From Arcobacteraceae bacterium (GTDB lineage Bacteria > Campylobacterota > Campylobacteria > Campylobacterales > Arcobacteraceae), in NCBI GenBank assembly GCA_963662945.1, contig OY759974.1, forward strand, positions 320,001 through 384,000: 64,000 bases of DNA, given 5' to 3'. This document shows positions 36,001-48,000 of the stretch, in pieces (positions within the stretch are counted from its first letter, which is position 1; each line of letters begins with the position of its first letter). The position numbers were made by a program.

Positions 36001-39000
36001 ATCTATCAAAAATATTTTTTAAATCTTCCTCTTTTATCCCTATCCCATAATCTTTGATTTTGATTTTTTCTTTATTTAAAGATATTTCTACAATAGAGTT
36101 TTTATGAGAATATTTTAAAGAATTTTGAATAATATTTCCTATCAATATTTTTAGTAATAAAGGATGTCCTTGAACAATAATATTTTCAAAATGATGAAAA
36201 TAAAACTTAATATTTTTTGTTTCTATGAGTTGCTTATTTTGTGCTATCACTTCAGTGATAATTTCATCAAGCTCCACATCCACAAATTGCTGTTCAATCT
36301 CTTTATTATTTGATTTCGATAAAAAAAGTAAGCTATTAATAAGTTCTTGTAAAGATTTTGTTTCTTCTAATGTACTAGATAAAATATTTTTGTATTCTTG
36401 ATTTGTTCTTTCTTTTCGTAAGCCTAGTTCTATTTCTCCTCGTATGATTGTAAGGGGAGTTTTAAGTTCATGGGAAACATCGTTTGAAAATCTTTTTATT
36501 TTTGAAAATGAATCATCAAGTTTATCAAGTAAAAAATTAAATGTAGTAATCAACTCTTCTATCTCATCATTACTACTAAGTGTTGAAATCCTTTTATTTA
36601 GGTTATGTGATTCTATATCTTTTACTTCATCAATAGCTTTTTTTACAGGATGTAAAGAACTTTTAATGATAAAATAACCAGAAATGATAGAAAGAACTAA
36701 TAATATAGGAATCAATACCATTAAAATATCTTTTAAATGCACCATAGCTGGTTCTATTTTATCTTTTAAAGTTGTTGCAACTTCTATATAAATATTATTA
36801 TCTTTATCACTTCTATACCGTATTACTCTTATTGTATTTTTACTGGTAAATGTTTGAAATTCACCTTTTTCTAAAAGTTTAAAATTTTGAATATCGATTG
36901 GTGATTTGTTTGAAGATATTTTATTAAATTTTCCATTTTTATATTGATAAATTACTATAGAGAAATTTTGTATTAAAAACTCTTCATTGTCAAAAGGGGT
37001 ATAAAAATGTTGACTATAATTAATTTCATTAATAATTGTTAAGAGTTGATTATCTATAGTTTTCATATTTTGTTTATAAAACTGCATTATTAATACACTT
37101 GAAAAAATCGATAATATAATAGTAATTACTATTGAATAATAAAAAAGAAGTCTTGTTTTTATATTTTTAAGATTCATTATTTTGGCTTACTTTATATCCC
37201 ATTCCTCGAATAGTATGGATAAGTTTTATATCATTTTCTTTATCTATTTTTTTTCTCAATCTATAAATATATACATTTATAATATTACTTGCTGTATCTT
37301 TATCCATATTCCATAAAGAGTTATTAATCATATCTTCTGTTACTACTTTTTCTTGATTCATTAAAAGATACTCTAAAAGAATATATTCTTTTGAACTAAG
37401 AGTAATATTTCTATCTCCTCTTGTGACAATTTTTCTATCACAATCAAGTCTTAAATCAGCTATTTTAAGTATATTTGTCAGAGACTTTCCCTCTCTAAGT
37501 TGTACTTTTATACGTGCAATCAACTCATCAAATGAAAAAGGTTTTGACATATAATCATTTGCACCACTATTTAAACCCAATACTTTTTCATCTATGGAAC
37601 TTTTGGCAGTTAACATTATAATAGGTATTTTAATATTTTTTTCTCTTATAATTTTACATAAACTTACACCATCAATAGCAGGTATCATAAGATCTAAAAT
37701 AATAAGATCATAACTATTGGTTTCAATTAAATATAAAGCTTCTTCACCATCAAAACAACAATCTACTATATAGTTCTCTTCTACTAAACCTTTCGATAAA
37801 AATGAGGAGATTTTAACATCATCTTCCACCACCAATATTTTCATAGATTGTATCCTTTACTTTTCTATTGTAAGTATAACTTATTTGTCATAACACTTAC
37901 AAGGCTATATTGGTTTTGTAATTTTTTAGTTAGTGTAATTAATGTGCAAGAGGAAAGGAGTGTATTGATTTTAGTTAATATTTCTCTACTTACCCGAATA
38001 TAGCCCTTGTATGTGTATGATGAAATTATAATATTCAAATATGAACAGAATATGAATTTTTTTTCATATTATATTCATTTGGAATTCATATCTATAATTT
38101 ATAATTTTTAACAAATAAAAAGGAGTGATATGTTTTCAAATGCCCTCAAAGCTTTAATTGCCAATAGATTAAAAACTTTTTTAATATTCCTAAGCTTTAC
38201 ATTTTCTATTACTGCTATATTTCTCATCTCTTCTATTGCCACAGGAATTATCACTATGTACTCTTCTATGCTTAAAAGTGATGGAGATATTATAGTAACA
38301 CAAAAAAATATTTCTGATACTTTTTTTAGTAATGTTGATACAAAACTTATTCCTAAAATTGAAACAATCAAAGATGTTACAAAAGTATCAGCGCTTATCT
38401 TTGGTGCAAGTCCAGTAGAAAACTTACCTATCATTGCTGTCTATGGAAGTAGTCAAAATAGATTTTCAAACTACAAACTTATAAAAGGTAATTATCCACA
38501 AAAAGATGAAGTAATTGTTGGTAACTCAATATATAAGCAACTTCAAAATCAAAGAACAATCACAATTGGGACAAAAAATTTTATAGTAAGTGGTATCTAT
38601 GAAAGTGAAATTGGATTTGAAAATGGTGGGGTTGTTTTAAATTTAGAAGATGCTAGTAAAATTTTTAATAAATCAGCTTCTTTATTTCTTATAAATACAA
38701 CAATGAAGAGCAATAAAGATACCATCTTAAAAACTATCAATAATTTAAGTGATACTATTGAAGCAAAAAAAACAACACAATTTATAGAAAATTACAATCA
38801 ATTCAATATCATAAAAACCTCATCAAATGTTATCTCATTTATCGCTTTTTCTATGGGACTTTTAGCCATAGCTTCTATTATGAGTATCACAGTCAATGAT
38901 AGAAAAGATGAGTTTGGGATTAAAAGAGCTTTAGGGATAAGTAGTTTTAGGATTACTATATCTTTAATCATTGAAAGTTTTATAGTAGGTATTATCTCTT

Positions 39001-45000: not shown

Positions 45001-48000
45001 TTGAAGCTTTATATATAAAAGTTATCAAAATAAACTCAGCTAACAACTCCATAGAAGAAATTAAATCAACCAAATTTCCACAGGAACTAATAAATAAAAA
45101 AGAATATTTGCTAAACTTGGAACTTGATAATATCTCATTTGAATCTAAAGCTGATTATCTTATTGCTTATCTCAAAATAGAATATAAAAATGATTTATAT
45201 GTTATAGAAGTAACTACAAAACAAGAAAAACTTAATAGTATAGTTACAAACTTTATCTATATTTTACTTTTAGCTACACCTTTGGTTCTTATTATTTCGA
45301 TTATTCTAGGAAACTATATCATTACTAAAAGTTTTTATCCTATAGATAATCTTCTTTATCAAATAAAACAAATTAAAGGCGATAATATTTCTAAAAGAAT
45401 TAATATTAAAAATAGCAAAGATGAAATAGACCTTATCTCTATTGAGATAAATAAACTACTCCAAAGAATGGATGACTATTTTCATAAAATTGAACAATTT
45501 AACTATGACGTTTCTCATGAACTAAAAACACCTCTTACAATTATCAGAGGTGAATTAGAAGTCCTTTTAAGAAAAGAGAGACCTATAGATGAATATAAAC
45601 ACAGTATCAATGAATCATTACAAGAAATACTCTCTTTACAAAAACTCATTGATGATTTACTCTTTTTGGCAAAAGTTGATACAACTGATACTATTTTTGA
45701 AGAGATTTATCTTGATGAACTTCTTCTTACTAGTATCAAAGATATGGAAAAAACAGCACTACTAAAACACTGTACTTTAAACTATAACATAAAAGATGCA
45801 ATCACAGTTAGTGGAAATGAAACTCTTCTGAAAATACTTCTTAAAAATATTATTGAAAATGCTATTTTTTATTCAAAAGAAAATTCTGATATAAATATCA
45901 CCCTTTCTCGAAAAAACAATGATAAACTTATAGAAATTGAAGATTTTGGTTTAGGGATGACACAAGAAGAAATAGATAAGATTTATGATAAATTTTACAA
46001 AAGTGATAAAAGTCGTTCTCAAAATCCACAAAGCAGTGGTTTAGGGATGTCAATAGTAAAAAATATAGCCCAAATTCATCATATAAAAACAGATATTCAG
46101 AGCCAAAAAAATAAAGGAACTAAAATCACTCTAACTTTTTAAAAATCTAAAGTAATTTATCAAATTATTACTAATTTTTAGATAGCATTTCTCCATGGTA
46201 TACTTTTTTGATAAGCGGATAATTTCCCATTTTAACTTTGAACTTATTTTACTCATAGTGCCTTTAGCATTTTTATCACATTATCTTATTCTAGAAACAA
46301 ATGAAGTACTCGCACAAAAACAACTCATATATTATTCTCTCTCTATTGCTGCATTTATAGGAGTATTTATAATTCCGTTTAGAAATCTTACTAGATTTAT
46401 ACCGTTTATTTATTGGTTTGGAATATTTTTACTACTTTTAGTTGAAGTTGCAGGAGTAACAAAACTTGGTGCTACAAGATGGGTTGAGATACCTATAATT
46501 CATATGACTATTCAACCATCAGAATTGTTTAAACCTGCCTTTTTACTTATGATTGGATTTTTAGTAGCAAATAGACCTCCTCCAAAAGAAGGATATGGAC
46601 TTAAAGATTTTTCATATTTTAGTTTTTATATTTTATTACCATTTATTCTTATAGCAAAAGAACCTGACTTAGGAACAGCGCTTGTGCTTCTTTTTGTTGG
46701 GTATGGTGTATTATTTTTACTTGGTATTCATTGGAAAATTATAGCAGCTATTGTACTTATACTAGGTATTAGTTCTCCTATAATTTATACCTATTTAATC
46801 AAAGATTATCAAAAAAAGAGAATCCATGATTTTATTAGTGAAGAACCTAGTTATCATGTAAAACAGTCTTTAATCGCCATTGGTTCAGGTGGACTCATTG
46901 GAAAAGATAAAGATGAAGCTACCCAAACACAACTGAAGTTTTTACCTATTGCTACAAGCGATTTTATTTTTGCCTCATTTGTTGAAAGATATGGTTTTAT
47001 GGGTTCTGTTGGATTAGTTTTTTTGTATCTCTTGATTATTATTCATCTCTTGCTATTGCATAAGCATTTTCAAAAAGATTTTCTCATTAGTGTTTTCTCC
47101 AGTGGCTTAGCGATGCTTCTGTTTTTAAATATGAGTATCAATATACTAATGGTGATAGGATTTGCACCAGTTGTTGGATTGCCATTACCTTTATTTAGCT
47201 ATGGTGGAAGTTCTTTTATCAACTTTGTTGTTCTTTTTGCTATTTTAGAAAATCTTATTGCATTTAGATTTATGGATGGCTATAGCTTTAATAGAAAAAT
47301 GTAAGCAACTCCACAGTATGAAAAGATGCGTTAATTCAAGTTTTTTTAGATAAAATAACCAAATGAATACAATTGATATATTAAAAAATAAAGTTTTACA
47401 AGTTACAAAAGAGTTTAACTTTCTTCTACAAGAGAATAAACAACTTAAATATAAGTTAGAACAACTCCAAGAAAAAAATGATATATTAACAAGAAAAAGT
47501 GAGGATTTAATCCTTACAATCAACAGTAGACTAAGACAAGAAGAGGATGAGCCAAAGTGAAAAACATCACATTTCATATCAACAACGAAGCTTATACTGT
47601 AGATATAGGGGAAGACCCAGAAGATAAACTTCAAAATGGACTTAAAAAGTTTCTTACAACTGAAAAAAACCTAAGCACTGCTGAATTACTTTTAGCTTAC
47701 TTACGAAAGTCTCAAGAACTTATTAATTTTGAAGAAGAAGTAAATCAACAAATAACACAACTTCCTAGTTTAGAAGACTTAAGAGTACTCTAATCATTAA
47801 AATAATTTAGACTTTAAAGTCTTCTCCACCTCTTTATAATCAGGCATATACAAACTCACCAGATTCCAAAATCTTTGAGAATGGTTTTTTTCCTCAATAT
47901 GACATAATTCATGTAAAACAACATATTCTATCGCTTTTTTATCAAACTGTAAAAGCTTATAATTTATAGAAATATTATTCTCAAAACTACAACTTCCCCA

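Follow-up and report, generated by a model that had tools for sequence, protein, structure and literature searches.

What does a haem-copper oxidase (HCO)-like protein do when it keeps the haem-ligand histidines of its relatives but not their usual metal site, and when it is encoded among transport genes? The question is raised by g0360, a protein of 520 amino acids encoded on the forward strand (39816..41378) of the window, the 64,000-nucleotide stretch of an Arcobacteraceae genome analyzed here. The occurrence of this fold and these histidines, without the usual site, beside lipid-handling transport genes suggests that an old scaffold has taken on a new role. The observation that drew attention to the locus is confirmed, including the coordinates of all nine genes of its operon, while its interpretation is supported in part.

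Fold, affiliation and distribution of g0360

The AF2 model of g0360, built without templates (pLDDT 85.7, against 85.1 in the first-pass annotation; pTM 0.85), displays a 12-TM core formed by residues 1-395, followed by four extra TM helices (residues 399-510). In VIA comparisons, residues 1-395 matched NorB with Z-scores of 27.5 (4xyd_A; rmsd 3.9, 376 aligned) and 27.1 (3o0r_B) and CcoN with 25.4-26.2 (25.6 for 3mk7_A), and the 50 best VIA matches listed were HCO subunit I. Foldseek returned 10 matches at E<=1e-3, all of them to HCO subunit I, comprising 7 CcoN, 2 NorB and 1 ba3 structures; the subunit-I fold claimed earlier is thereby reproduced, although the previous count of 9 matches, exclusively CcoN and NorB, is not. 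As noted before, the Pfam COX1 match (27.2 bits, E 2.3e-6) falls below its cut-off of 34.8, NCBIfam gives no match, and a PDB sequence search with the single g0360 sequence found nothing. The accompanying judgment that homology is marginal must nevertheless be withdrawn, as hhalign gave 82.5% against NorB of the same genome, and the family profile, compared with a combined CcoN and NorB profile, aligned over 397 columns at a probability of 97.6% (E 4.8e-12). On the combined evidence of profiles and model, g0360 is judged to belong genuinely to the HCO subunit-I superfamily, in which it is very divergent and nearest to the cbb3/NOR branch. Since the same genome also encodes a true cNOR (625 bits to 3o0r_B) and CcoN, the latter adjoined by ORFs that only their order and length mark as candidates for CcoO/Q/P, g0360 is no replacement for these respiratory enzymes.

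The description of a small family from environmental Campylobacterota holds. The search of 1.84e9 representatives again yielded 64 matches, one of which (P0176) is a spurious repeat protein, and members occur in 37 of 401 Campylobacterota genomes and 15 of 64 genera. The distribution is patchy within the Arcobacteraceae (12 of 23 genomes), and the family was found in 0/118 and 0/158 genomes of the two largest families searched. By record name, the hosts are Arcobacter, Sulfurimonas, Sulfurovum and Sulfurospirillum; the record of one locus, L023, is labelled only 'Proteobacteria bacterium'.

Haem ligands and the former CuB/FeB site

In an alignment of members with identities down to 36%, 84 columns are invariant and cluster near the level of the haems and on the periplasmic side, in the usual HCO topology as assigned by hand from the helix boundaries of the model. 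H52, H302, H310, H312, D186 and R233 are present in each of 135 distinct full-length members. The invariance earlier ascribed to the four histidines is therefore upheld, and that ascribed to the GPHGDNT motif is not, as H184, its His, and N187 each occur in 134 of the 135, with Arg replacing H184 in P0132. A fifth invariant His, H452, lies within the extra four-helix C-terminal domain, buried together with the invariant D411, R473 and D500. Only columns 11, 52, 184, 302, 310, 312 and 452 carry His in half or more of the members.

Alignment with CcoN places H52 on the His of RPLH, and HRNDLIVAHAH of g0360 on HFTDWIPGHVH. The TM2 His, the TM10 H-x-H and the His eight residues upstream are retained both there and across the 135 members, as had been proposed, and upstream of H310 the conserved HCO His and Asp are kept at eight and five residues (H302 and D305). 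By this pattern, H52 (TM2) and H312 (TM10) are the proposed bis-His ligands of a low-spin haem b, and H310 would be the proximal His of a high-spin haem.

The distal side of the site is a different matter. Helix 7 (TM7) bears no conserved His pair in the 135 members, in contrast to the NorB-type sequences of the phylum, of which 20 of 20 retain all seven ligands. The former CuB/FeB position, on the periplasmic side, is occupied by the invariant D186, Y226, R233 and E244, the nearly invariant H184, and position 232, which is Tyr (87 members) or His (42) and less often Phe (2), Trp (1) or Ile (1). The residue register of TM6 and TM7 at this position is ambiguous, differing between alignments, and model confidence is low in the GPHGDN loop (pLDDT 48-61). 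The claim that g0360 is without the CuB/FeB site is correct in that the canonical three-His site is absent; given the ambiguous register and the presence of H184 and D186 on helix 6, only that canonical site is missing, and to speak of no metal site is too strong. To judge from the sequence, H184 could occupy the TM6 ligand position, and because the invariant carboxylates D186, E244, D286 and D305 surround it, a remodelled, non-canonical metal site involving H184 and D186 may exist.

The operon, its conserved core and its regulation

The nine genes (38130-46142, forward strand) overlap or lie no more than 11 nt from their neighbours, and no terminator-like site was seen on the forward strand of the operon. 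The first encodes a MacB/FtsX-type ABC permease of 360 amino acids (38130..39212) with a periplasmic MacB_PCD domain (Pfam FtsX 49.2 bits, MacB_PCD 44.4 bits), whose best matches in a PDB sequence search were the Spr0694-95 permease (5xu1_M) and MacB. The gene for an ABC ATPase of 210 amino acids (39209..39841; ABC_tran 128.6 bits) overlaps it by 4 nt; the best NCBIfam match of this protein is LolD, at 196 bits and below cut-off. The gene for g0360 in turn overlaps the 3' end of the ATPase gene by 26 nt. The following 329-aa membrane protein (41380..42369), formerly listed as unknown, matches no Pfam or NCBIfam family, but its AF2 model (pLDDT 89.3) adopts the fold of a compact 12-TM MFS transporter, with a VIA wide Z-score of 24.5 to EfpA (9bii_A); the 50 best VIA matches listed and all 32 Foldseek matches at E<=1e-3 were MFS or MFS-like transporters. 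Next come a YceI-family, periplasmic lipocalin-like protein of 175 amino acids with a signal-peptide-like N-terminus (42362..42889; Pfam YceI 63.5 bits, cut-off 23.7; PDB matches 1y0g_A and 7bwl_A) and a 151-aa protein (42890..43345) that matches nothing in Pfam, NCBIfam or the PDB. The latter thus remains without a family, though no longer simply unknown, being Cys-less and secreted, with invariant M87, P88, F95-M100 (FALPKM) and Y103 and a weak lead to a YtfJ_HI0045 or AhpC-TSA-like (thioredoxin-type) fold (Atlas scores 0.91 and 0.90). A calcineurin-type, YaeI/LpxG-like metallophosphoesterase (43299..44096; Pfam Metallophos 63.5 bits; NCBIfam YaeI 95 bits, below cut-off) precedes the two regulatory genes.

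Linkage with the ABC-transporter and YceI genes is borne out as conserved across 24 loci. The permease, ATPase and g0360 homologue are adjacent in 23; the ATPase is present in all 24, the permease in 23 (L021 ends at a contig edge), the MFS gene in 22, YceI in 22 (21 by tblastn and L023 by Pfam), always adjoining the MFS gene, and the 151-aa protein gene in 18. The conserved unit is thus one of six genes, encoding the MacB-type permease, the ABC ATPase, the HCO-like protein, the MFS-fold protein, YceI and the 151-aa protein. Conservation of all nine genes, as first described, does not extend to distant loci, where the phosphoesterase is swapped, the regulator/kinase pair differs and the order is rearranged. 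The metallophosphoesterase, adjacent in 16 of the 24, is a lineage-specific accessory, whose place an MBL-fold hydrolase takes in L008, L020, L021, L022 and L057; gene order is altered in L008, L020, L022, L023 and L057. In one lineage a multihaem cytochrome c (approximately 10 CxxCH motifs) is encoded next to the cluster, as seen in L008, L020 and L022, with a fragment of one in L057.

The operon's own OmpR-family response regulator (44108..44785) is closest to the CopR/CusR/HprR subfamily (NCBIfam cztR_silR_copR 250.9 bits, cut-off 279.2; HprR 236.9 bits), and its sensor histidine kinase (44772..46142; Pfam HisKA and HATPase_c, with only a weak HAMP match of 16.4 bits, cut-off 25) to the CopS/CusS heavy-metal subfamily (cztS_silS_copS 220.4 bits, cut-off 292.55). 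Divergent from the operon, on the reverse strand, lie a second sensor histidine kinase of 446 amino acids (35837..37177; HAMP, HisKA, HATPase_c), kept upstream only in L001 and L002, and a second OmpR-family regulator of 225 amino acids (37167..37844; Response_reg and Trans_reg_C) with 53% identity to the operon's own (L001). A candidate response-regulator operator (38037..38089, forward strand) comprises three direct TTCAT repeats starting at 38063, 38074 and 38085 (11-bp spacing) and inverted ATATGAA copies at 38041-38056, with TATAAT at 38093-38098 and 38100-38105, 3' of the TTCAT repeats. Of 23 upstream regions, 16 carry the triple repeat, placed between -66 and -75 relative to the permease start, and its pattern has a single match in the 2.5-Mb genome, upstream of this operon. 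As a candidate operator, it would tie the Arcobacteraceae-type operon to its own two-component system.

Possible functions and comparison with known systems

By analogy with the b561-YceI pair LcoA-BcnA, it is tentatively proposed that g0360 serves as the dihaem, periplasm-facing redox partner of a lipid- or isoprenoid-quinone-handling module. It would be a dihaem b membrane oxidoreductase that supplies the redox function of an envelope module of six genes, probably receiving electrons from quinol, or from the multihaem cytochrome c in Sulfurovum-type clusters. Instead of reducing O2 or NO, it would act on a lipid-borne, hydrophobic substrate at the periplasmic face. The compact MFS-fold protein would possibly act as a flippase, the MacB-type ABC pair as an 'extractor', and isoprenoid quinone or lipid would be carried by the YceI lipocalin, roles that we infer from the folds only, and the Cys-less periplasmic 151-aa protein would be a further part. 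Lipid or quinone would be handed over much as LolCDE gives lipoproteins to LolA. In Arcobacteraceae-type loci, the CopRS/HprRS-like two-component system would activate the operon through the three TTCAT boxes overlapping the -35. Because both HCO haems would lie near the periplasmic side, g0360 could not pass electrons across the membrane in the way proposed for b561. A second, canonical YceI elsewhere in the genome (165 bits, against approximately 63 for the divergent YceI of the operon) counts against this proposal, which also leaves unexplained the two phosphoesterase types, whose N-termini, inspected by eye in the window and L022 sequences, are non-hydrophobic and cytoplasmic-looking.

It is unlikely that g0360 is instead a terminal reductase or detoxifier that acts on some small molecule, be it NO, N2O, H2O2, superoxide or polysulfide or another sulfur species, at a novel active site of haem and Asp/Arg/Tyr or of haem and a non-canonical metal. 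The invariant polar cluster at the former metal site would suit such an enzyme, as would the multihaem cytochrome c linked to it in three to four distant loci, which, or else quinol, would supply electrons; the named hosts are sulfur- and nitrogen-cycling genera, and the protein was not found in the two largest families searched. Altered-site HCO families that still reduce NO exist, but in the portion of PMC11214002 drawn on here gNOR is the first HCO with one of the three His replaced, and characterized HCO reductases all keep at least two. The genome, moreover, already has cNOR and cbb3, and the Arcobacteraceae-type operon has no dedicated electron-entry subunit. The ABC pair, MFS protein, YceI and 151-aa protein would here serve cofactor delivery or maturation, yet a linkage so tight, and so rearranged, with four transport or carrier proteins is not known for the maturation genes of HCOs.

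A part in haem handling is improbable. The MacB-type pair would extract haem from the membrane as HrtBA does, g0360 would store, chaperone or sense haem there, and YceI would be the periplasmic acceptor. A 4-TM FtsX permease with a periplasmic domain, and without an adaptor or TolC gene, has the architecture of the HrtBA class; HrtAB is under the two-component system HssRS, which the control of this operon resembles, the haem-ligand histidines are invariant, and the multihaem cytochromes nearby require haem export. The PDB search with the permease, however, found no similarity to HrtB at E<=1, with Spr0694-95 and MacB the best matches; the kinase is of the CopS rather than the HssS type, and a fully conserved, buried bis-His/HxH arrangement amid many invariant residues suits fixed cofactors over transient cargo.

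Homeostasis of copper or another metal under a CopRS-type sensor appears just as improbable. The MFS, thioredoxin-like periplasmic and HCO-like proteins would have their counterparts in CcoA, SenC and CcoN of cbb3 assembly, and a Met/His/Asp site of g0360 would bind copper or cycle it between redox states. In NCBIfam, regulator and kinase match the heavy-metal subfamily best, Met is invariant in g0360 (M101 and M191, with M169 in 134 of 135) and in the 151-aa protein (M87 and M100), and CcoA, reportedly an MFS protein linked to an oxidase, offers a precedent. Those matches fall under their cut-offs, however, and distant loci have another regulator/kinase pair; no Met or Cys is invariant in the MFS-fold protein, Cys is absent from the 151-aa protein, and the cluster contains no CopA, CusF or multicopper oxidase gene. 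Most improbable is a non-catalytic relic that would partner the ABC transporter in the membrane, structurally or as a regulator, and keep its histidines for folding only, since the loss of catalytic metal ligands and the translational coupling to the ATPase gene stand against invariant columns clustered at the haem level and periplasmic side and four haem-tied histidines without exception.

The preferred role as redox partner of a lipid- or quinone-handling module may be set against known systems. g0360 shares with CcoN and NorB the 12-TM fold, the TM2 His and the TM10 motif H-x3-D-x4-H-x-H, and its TM7 Tyr (Y226 or position 232) may match the cross-link Tyr of C-family HCOs. It differs in lacking the TM7 His pair, in the replacement of the TM6 His by D186 or H184, in its four extra C-terminal helices and in its place below the Pfam cut-off and outside NCBIfam models; no NorB-type Glu motif was recognized, and the operon in the window has no gene for a CcoO/NorC-type subunit. 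Like gNOR, eNOR, NOD and a putative N2O reductase, g0360 belongs to the superfamily without having an O2-reductase site, and another chemistry is presumed; those families, as far as the consulted portion of their description goes, change one ligand or Tyr, and its dataset sd06 has 20 classes, none for the g0360 family (Murali et al. 2024, PMC11214002). With LolCDE-LolA and HrtBA the module has in common a 4-TM FtsX permease with periplasmic MacB_PCD and a LolD-like ATPase, without an adaptor or TolC gene, and a periplasmic hydrophobic-ligand carrier encoded alongside, although scores are far below the LolC/LolD cut-offs and the carrier is YceI, not LolA. The closest functional analogy to g0360-YceI would be LcoA-BcnA, a cytochrome b561 and a YceI-family protein with linked and fused genes; in the sections of PMC9113575 relied on here, a homologue binds ubiquinone-8, a lipid-peroxidation phenotype is described, and the pair protects the envelope from lipid peroxyl radicals. 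g0360 has an HCO fold rather than that of b561, with both haems expected near the periplasmic side, and its module adds four conserved genes (the ABC pair, MFS and 151-aa protein). Both systems, as far as those sections describe LcoA-BcnA, genetically tie a secreted YceI lipocalin to a putative dihaem b membrane protein, probably under envelope stress control.

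A haem-copper oxidoreductase relative within a nine-gene operon

Nine open reading frames follow one another on the same strand, with neighbouring starts and stops either overlapping or at most 11 nt apart. Pfam and NCBIfam identify among them a permease with FtsX and MacB_PCD domains (38130-39212, +), an ABC ATPase (39209-39841, +), a YceI protein (42362-42889, +), a metallophosphoesterase (43299-44096, +), a response regulator (44108-44785, +) and a sensor kinase (44772-46142, +), and neither database gives a match above threshold for the 520-aa protein similar to haem-copper oxidoreductases (HCO-like; 39816-41378, +), the 329-aa protein (41380-42369, +) or the 151-aa protein (42890-43345, +). 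A second regulator/kinase pair recognized by Pfam lies divergently from the operon (35837-37844, -), and no terminator-like site was found on the + strand between 37700 and 47500. A RodA/FtsW-family gene (46195-47304, +) begins 52 nt past the kinase gene, again with no terminator-like site between, and is kept there by L001 and L002 alone, the two closest loci.

The HCO-like protein matches Pfam COX1 (PF00115) at 27.2 bits (E 2.3e-6), below the gathering score of 34.8; it has no match in NCBIfam, and a single-sequence search of the PDB returned nothing. The first-pass annotation had considered its homology to HCOs to be only marginal, a reservation answered by profile-profile comparison. While the family scored 30% against a 30-sequence profile of CcoN (cbb3 oxidase subunit I), 78.9% against a 20-sequence profile of NorB (cNOR subunit I) and 82.5% against the genome's own NorB, it reached 97.6% against the combined CcoN and NorB profile (E 4.8e-12, 397 columns). 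An AlphaFold2 model calculated without templates from an alignment of 25 family members (pLDDT 85.7, pTM 0.85, 16 helices) displays the 12-helix fold of HCO subunit I, as supported by both VIA-align and Foldseek. All 10 PDB chains found by Foldseek at E<=1e-3 are HCO subunits I (7 CcoN, 2 NorB and 1 ba3), as are the 50 VIA-align matches listed, the best of which is 4xyd_A (Z 27.5, rmsd 3.9, 376 residues aligned); over residues 1-395, 3o0r_B gives Z 27.1 and the CcoN chains Z 25.4-26.2. Chance Z values for helical bundles are typically about 14, so the match to the HCO fold stands well clear of them. Taken together, sequence profiles and modelled structure show the 520-aa protein to be a true relative of the HCOs.

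Following the common fold, residues 399-510 are modelled as four extra helices, in which D411, H452, R473 and D500 are invariant among 135 members; the C-terminal 126 residues match no Pfam family even at E<=10. An in-frame stop interrupts the HCO-like gene in three members (L009, L021 and G316:C69:4549-6087, TAG in the last), which could be pseudogenes or errors of MAG assembly, and L009 and L021 were left out of the alignment used for modelling. Long open frames in two further genomes (G091 and G320) that resembled fusions of the ABC and HCO-like genes were rejected, as these frames overlap the ATPase gene out of frame.

Haem ligands and the former metal site

Conservation was assessed across 135 distinct full-length members, 125 from database searches and 10 from the loci. 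H52, H302, H310, H312 and H452 are each present in all 135 and H184 in 134, and position 11 is the only other column with at least 50% His. In the hhalign alignment, H52 falls on the RPLH-motif His of CcoN, and the segment HRNDLIVAHAH is placed opposite HFTDWIPGHVH of CcoN, with NorB having the equal spacing (THGTQLTAAHGH). The helix 2 His and the second His of the helix 10 HxH motif, H52 and H312, thereby correspond to the low-spin haem ligands of CcoN, and the first His of the HxH motif, H310, occupies the place of the proximal ligand of the high-spin haem. The same assignment follows from the numbering of Pseudomonas aeruginosa NorB, checked on the alignment. Judged from these alignments, H52 and H312 would hold a low-spin haem and H310 a high-spin haem.

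The three-His CuB/FeB site, composed of one His from helix 6 and a His-His pair from helix 7, is not found in the HCO-like protein. All seven ligands are retained in 20/20 NorB-type sequences of the phylum, whereas helix 7 of the HCO-like family (217-235 in the model) bears no conserved His among the 135 members. At position 232, 87 members have Tyr, 42 have His and 6 have another residue; R233 is invariant, and positions 237 and 238 are variable. The residue register of helices 6 and 7 differs between alignments. For helix 6, one alignment places D186 on the His through a shared G-x-N motif, with H184 two residues upstream, while the spacing to a conserved IYY motif would let H184 take the place of the His. 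For helix 7, positions 232 and 233 may fall on the His-His pair, in which case the invariant Y226 lies six residues upstream at the spacing seen in CcoN, which is that of the C-family cross-link Tyr; alternatively, positions 237 and 238 fall on the pair and position 232 (Tyr in 87/135) on the Tyr. The cross-linked Tyr-His of the O2-reducing A, B and C families has Tyr candidates in Y226 or position 232, and no His is a sure partner for either. What these alignments safely show is that the family has lost the canonical three-His site. A global hhalign alignment to NorB misaligned helices 5-7 and was not used for any claim at the residue level.

In the place of the former site is a polar set made up of the invariant D186, R233, Y226, E244, D286 and D305 and the nearly invariant H184 and E177, where a different metal could still be bound. 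With helix boundaries assigned by hand and the usual HCO topology, the model would place this set toward the periplasmic half, as in the non-pumping NORs. The protein also stands apart from the cNORs themselves: their FeB ligands, H207, H258, H259 and E211 in P. aeruginosa numbering (checked on the alignment), are retained in 20/20 NorB-type proteins but not in the HCO-like protein, and no cytochrome c gene that might supply a NorC partner was found in the operon.

Partner proteins, linkage and regulation

The transporter of the operon is of the MacB type, with FtsX (49.2 bits), MacB_PCD (44.4 bits) and ABC_tran (128.6 bits) all above the Pfam cut-offs. The best solved relatives of the permease are the pneumococcal Spr0694-95 permease and MacB, and neither adaptor nor TolC genes were found beside it. 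For the ATPase, the top NCBIfam match is LolD, under its cut-off. The YceI protein is a clear family member (63.5 bits against a cut-off of 23.7). A second, canonical YceI (165 bits) is encoded far from the operon at G000:C1:1962458-1962940 (-), adjoining none of the four b561-type matches in the genome. Although it has no MFS match or anything credible in Pfam even at E<=10, the 329-aa protein is modelled with a compact 12-helix MFS fold (pLDDT 89.3); its best match by VIA-align among 48,161 representatives is EfpA (9bii_A, Z 24.5, 303 residues aligned), and the 50 VIA-align matches listed and the 32 Foldseek matches at E<=1e-3 are all MFS or MFS-like transporters. The Cys-less 151-aa protein has an N-terminus resembling a signal peptide and an invariant FALPKM..Y motif preceded by an invariant M87-P88. 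By its features it weakly resembles YtfJ_HI0045 and AhpC-TSA clusters (scores of 0.91 and 0.90), which is the sole lead; a single-sequence PDB search gave only E>0.6, and Pfam at E<=10 gave nothing credible. A predicted complex of this protein with the HCO-like protein scored 0.00, which gives no verdict in either direction.

Linkage was followed by tblastn with the proteins of the window in 24 loci from species genomes. The ATPase gene adjoins the HCO-like gene in 24/24, and the permease gene is present in 23 (the remaining locus, L021, is cut by the contig end), the MFS gene in 22, YceI in 21 (and in L023 by Pfam), the 151-aa gene in 18, the metallophosphoesterase in 16 and the downstream regulator in 15. 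The order is rearranged to MFS-YceI-permease-ATPase-HCO-like in L008, L022 and the later-fetched L057, and to permease-ATPase-HCO-like-151-MFS-YceI in L020, and the MFS-fold gene is always found beside YceI. Linkage that outlasts rearrangement in this way argues for function. An MBL-fold hydrolase (Lactamase_B_2) stands in the place of the metallophosphoesterase in L008, L020, L021, L022 and L057; in L008 (5137-6031) it spans two overlapping ORFs, as if broken by a frameshift. In L021, the hydrolase gene is followed by that of a PAP2-family lipid phosphatase (3513-4115) seen in this locus only, with two GGDEF genes beyond. In L008, L020 and L022 the cluster adjoins a gene for a multihaem cytochrome c with about 10 CxxCH motifs, for which a single-sequence PDB search returned nothing, and the edge of L057 holds a fragment of one. 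Travelling with this cytochrome in L008 (7789-10603) and L022 (1815-4674), on opposite sides of the module, is a block encoding a 209-aa regulator, a kinase of about 350 aa and two proteins of 119-129 and 271-280 aa. The genome of the window holds each module gene in a single copy and no homologue of the MBL-fold hydrolase or the multihaem cytochrome.

The HCO-like family comprises 532 matches among 5.8e9 proteins and 64 among 1.84e9 cluster representatives, with only about 6 full-length clusters. It occurs in 37 of 401 sampled Campylobacterota genomes and 15 of 64 genera, distributed over five families (12/23, 5/20, 7/34, 11/19 and 1/4 genomes) and absent from the two largest families of the sample (0/118 and 0/158). 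By record name, carriers are Arcobacter, Halarcobacter, Malaciobacter, Poseidonibacter, Sulfurimonas, Sulfurovum and Sulfurospirillum. The genome studied here also encodes a genuine cNOR as well as CcoN, beside which lie candidate CcoO/Q/P ORFs identified by their order and length only, so the HCO-like protein is an addition and not a substitute. The NorB of that cNOR (G000:C1:634116-635483; L026/L028) scores 625 bits over its full length against the P. aeruginosa enzyme and is much farther from the NorB-type proteins of other Campylobacterota (39-43% identity), a pattern that hints at lateral acquisition.

Upstream of the permease gene are three TTCAT repeats with 11-bp spacing (38063, 38074 and 38085), followed by TATAAT at 38093-38098 and 38100-38105 and preceded immediately by inverted copies. 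Across the 2.5-Mb genome this is the single match to the three-repeat pattern. Of 23 upstream regions, 16 carry the triple repeat, 66-75 nt upstream of the permease start. It is missing from four distant loci whose genes are arranged differently (L008, L020, L022 and L023), from L013, for which only 125 nt of upstream sequence were available, and from L002 and L015, where two repeats are kept. A layout in which direct repeats are spaced by one helical turn and overlap the -35 region is characteristic of OmpR/PhoB-type activators, and from it we infer that the operon's own regulator activates it through the candidate TTCAT operator. A two-repeat search of the genome gave 7 sites, mostly within or far from genes; the only well-positioned one (35730-35746, two TTCATA repeats) precedes a 99-aa ORF with no family match (35383-35682, -), just downstream of the divergent kinase gene, and this ORF may belong to the same regulon. 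A PhoB-like response to phosphate starvation was prompted by the phosphoesterases, the PAP2 gene of L021, a phosphate porin near L023 and the boxes, which presumably resemble a Pho box; it was not adopted because the regulators score better as CopR/CusR type.

Possible functions and known systems

The HCO-like family can be regarded as an established scaffold whose active-site make-up and genomic partners are new, and literature searches found no description of it. To our knowledge, every characterised HCO pairs its high-spin haem with a His-ligated Cu or Fe. A conserved, strongly constrained family with both haem sites and without the His triad, beside a normal cbb3 oxidase and cNOR, would mean that the scaffold has been recruited beyond the reduction of O2 and NO. 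Murali et al. distinguish 20 HCO classes in dataset sd06 and present gNOR as the first family in which a single active-site His is substituted (PMC11214002); by the dataset header, none of these classes corresponds to the HCO-like family, although it might be counted under 'C' in their figures for Arcobacteraceae genomes. Database records name its members 'hypothetical protein' or 'cbb3-type cytochrome c oxidase subunit I', so that oxidases may be miscounted in metabolic reconstructions of Arcobacter, Sulfurimonas and Sulfurovum genomes.

Beyond the fold, homology, ligand conservation, linkage and conserved operator observed for the family, a mechanism can be proposed. MacB-type transporters perform mechanical work in the periplasm, as in LolCDE and HrtBA, and the set of a MacB-type transporter, an MFS-fold protein and a secreted YceI lipocalin suggests that a hydrophobic molecule is handled at the inner membrane, on its outer face. 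In the most likely scheme, the HCO-like protein would carry two b haems close to the periplasmic side and draw electrons from quinol or, in Sulfurovum-type clusters, from the multihaem cytochrome; these electrons would go to a substrate in the remodelled pocket. We favour this coupling of redox chemistry to a lipid carrier, though tentatively. The fixed partnership with a MacB-type extractor, an MFS protein and a YceI lipocalin also bears on the role of YceI proteins and on how Gram-negative envelopes handle oxidised lipids or quinones.

An enzyme that reduces a small molecule at a new kind of active site is an unlikely alternative. We regard as rather less likely a bolder form of the favoured redox and lipid-carrier reading, a new functional HCO class with haem only, or haem and a metal without His ligands, in which an Asp186/Arg233/Tyr pocket would carry out peroxidase-like or radical-quenching chemistry on substrates borne by lipid or quinone, served by a Lol-like line from MFS flippase through MacB-type extractor to YceI carrier. 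Were this true, it would constitute a membrane-embedded quinol:lipid-(hydro)peroxyl reductase system, undescribed in bacteria before. Haem handling of the HrtBA kind, which would suit the transporter type, seems improbable. Copper or metal homeostasis is similarly improbable: the regulator and kinase fall short of the CopRS/CusRS/HprRS subfamily in NCBIfam (250.9 against 279.2 bits and 220.4 against 292.55), and their best matches are nonetheless of the heavy-metal subfamily, CopR/CusR/HprR for the regulator. A non-catalytic partner of the transporter, hardly in keeping with the invariant haem-linked histidines, is very improbable. None of these readings, including the favoured one, explains the phosphoesterases, both types of which look cytoplasmic from N-termini that are, by eye, non-hydrophobic.

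The nearest described system, as presented in PMC9113575, is LcoA-BcnA, in which a cytochrome b561 is linked or fused to a YceI lipocalin and whose loss raises lipid peroxidation. One homologue of the BcnA lipocalin has ubiquinone-8 as its ligand, and in the authors' proposal the lipocalin-bound quinone is re-reduced by the cytochrome (PMC9113575). YceI is linked to a cytochrome in both systems, but the linked cytochrome here has the HCO fold and not that of b561, and the b561-type matches in the genome all lie away from the operon. By analogy with what that source describes, the HCO-like module may work like LcoA-BcnA without being a member of it.
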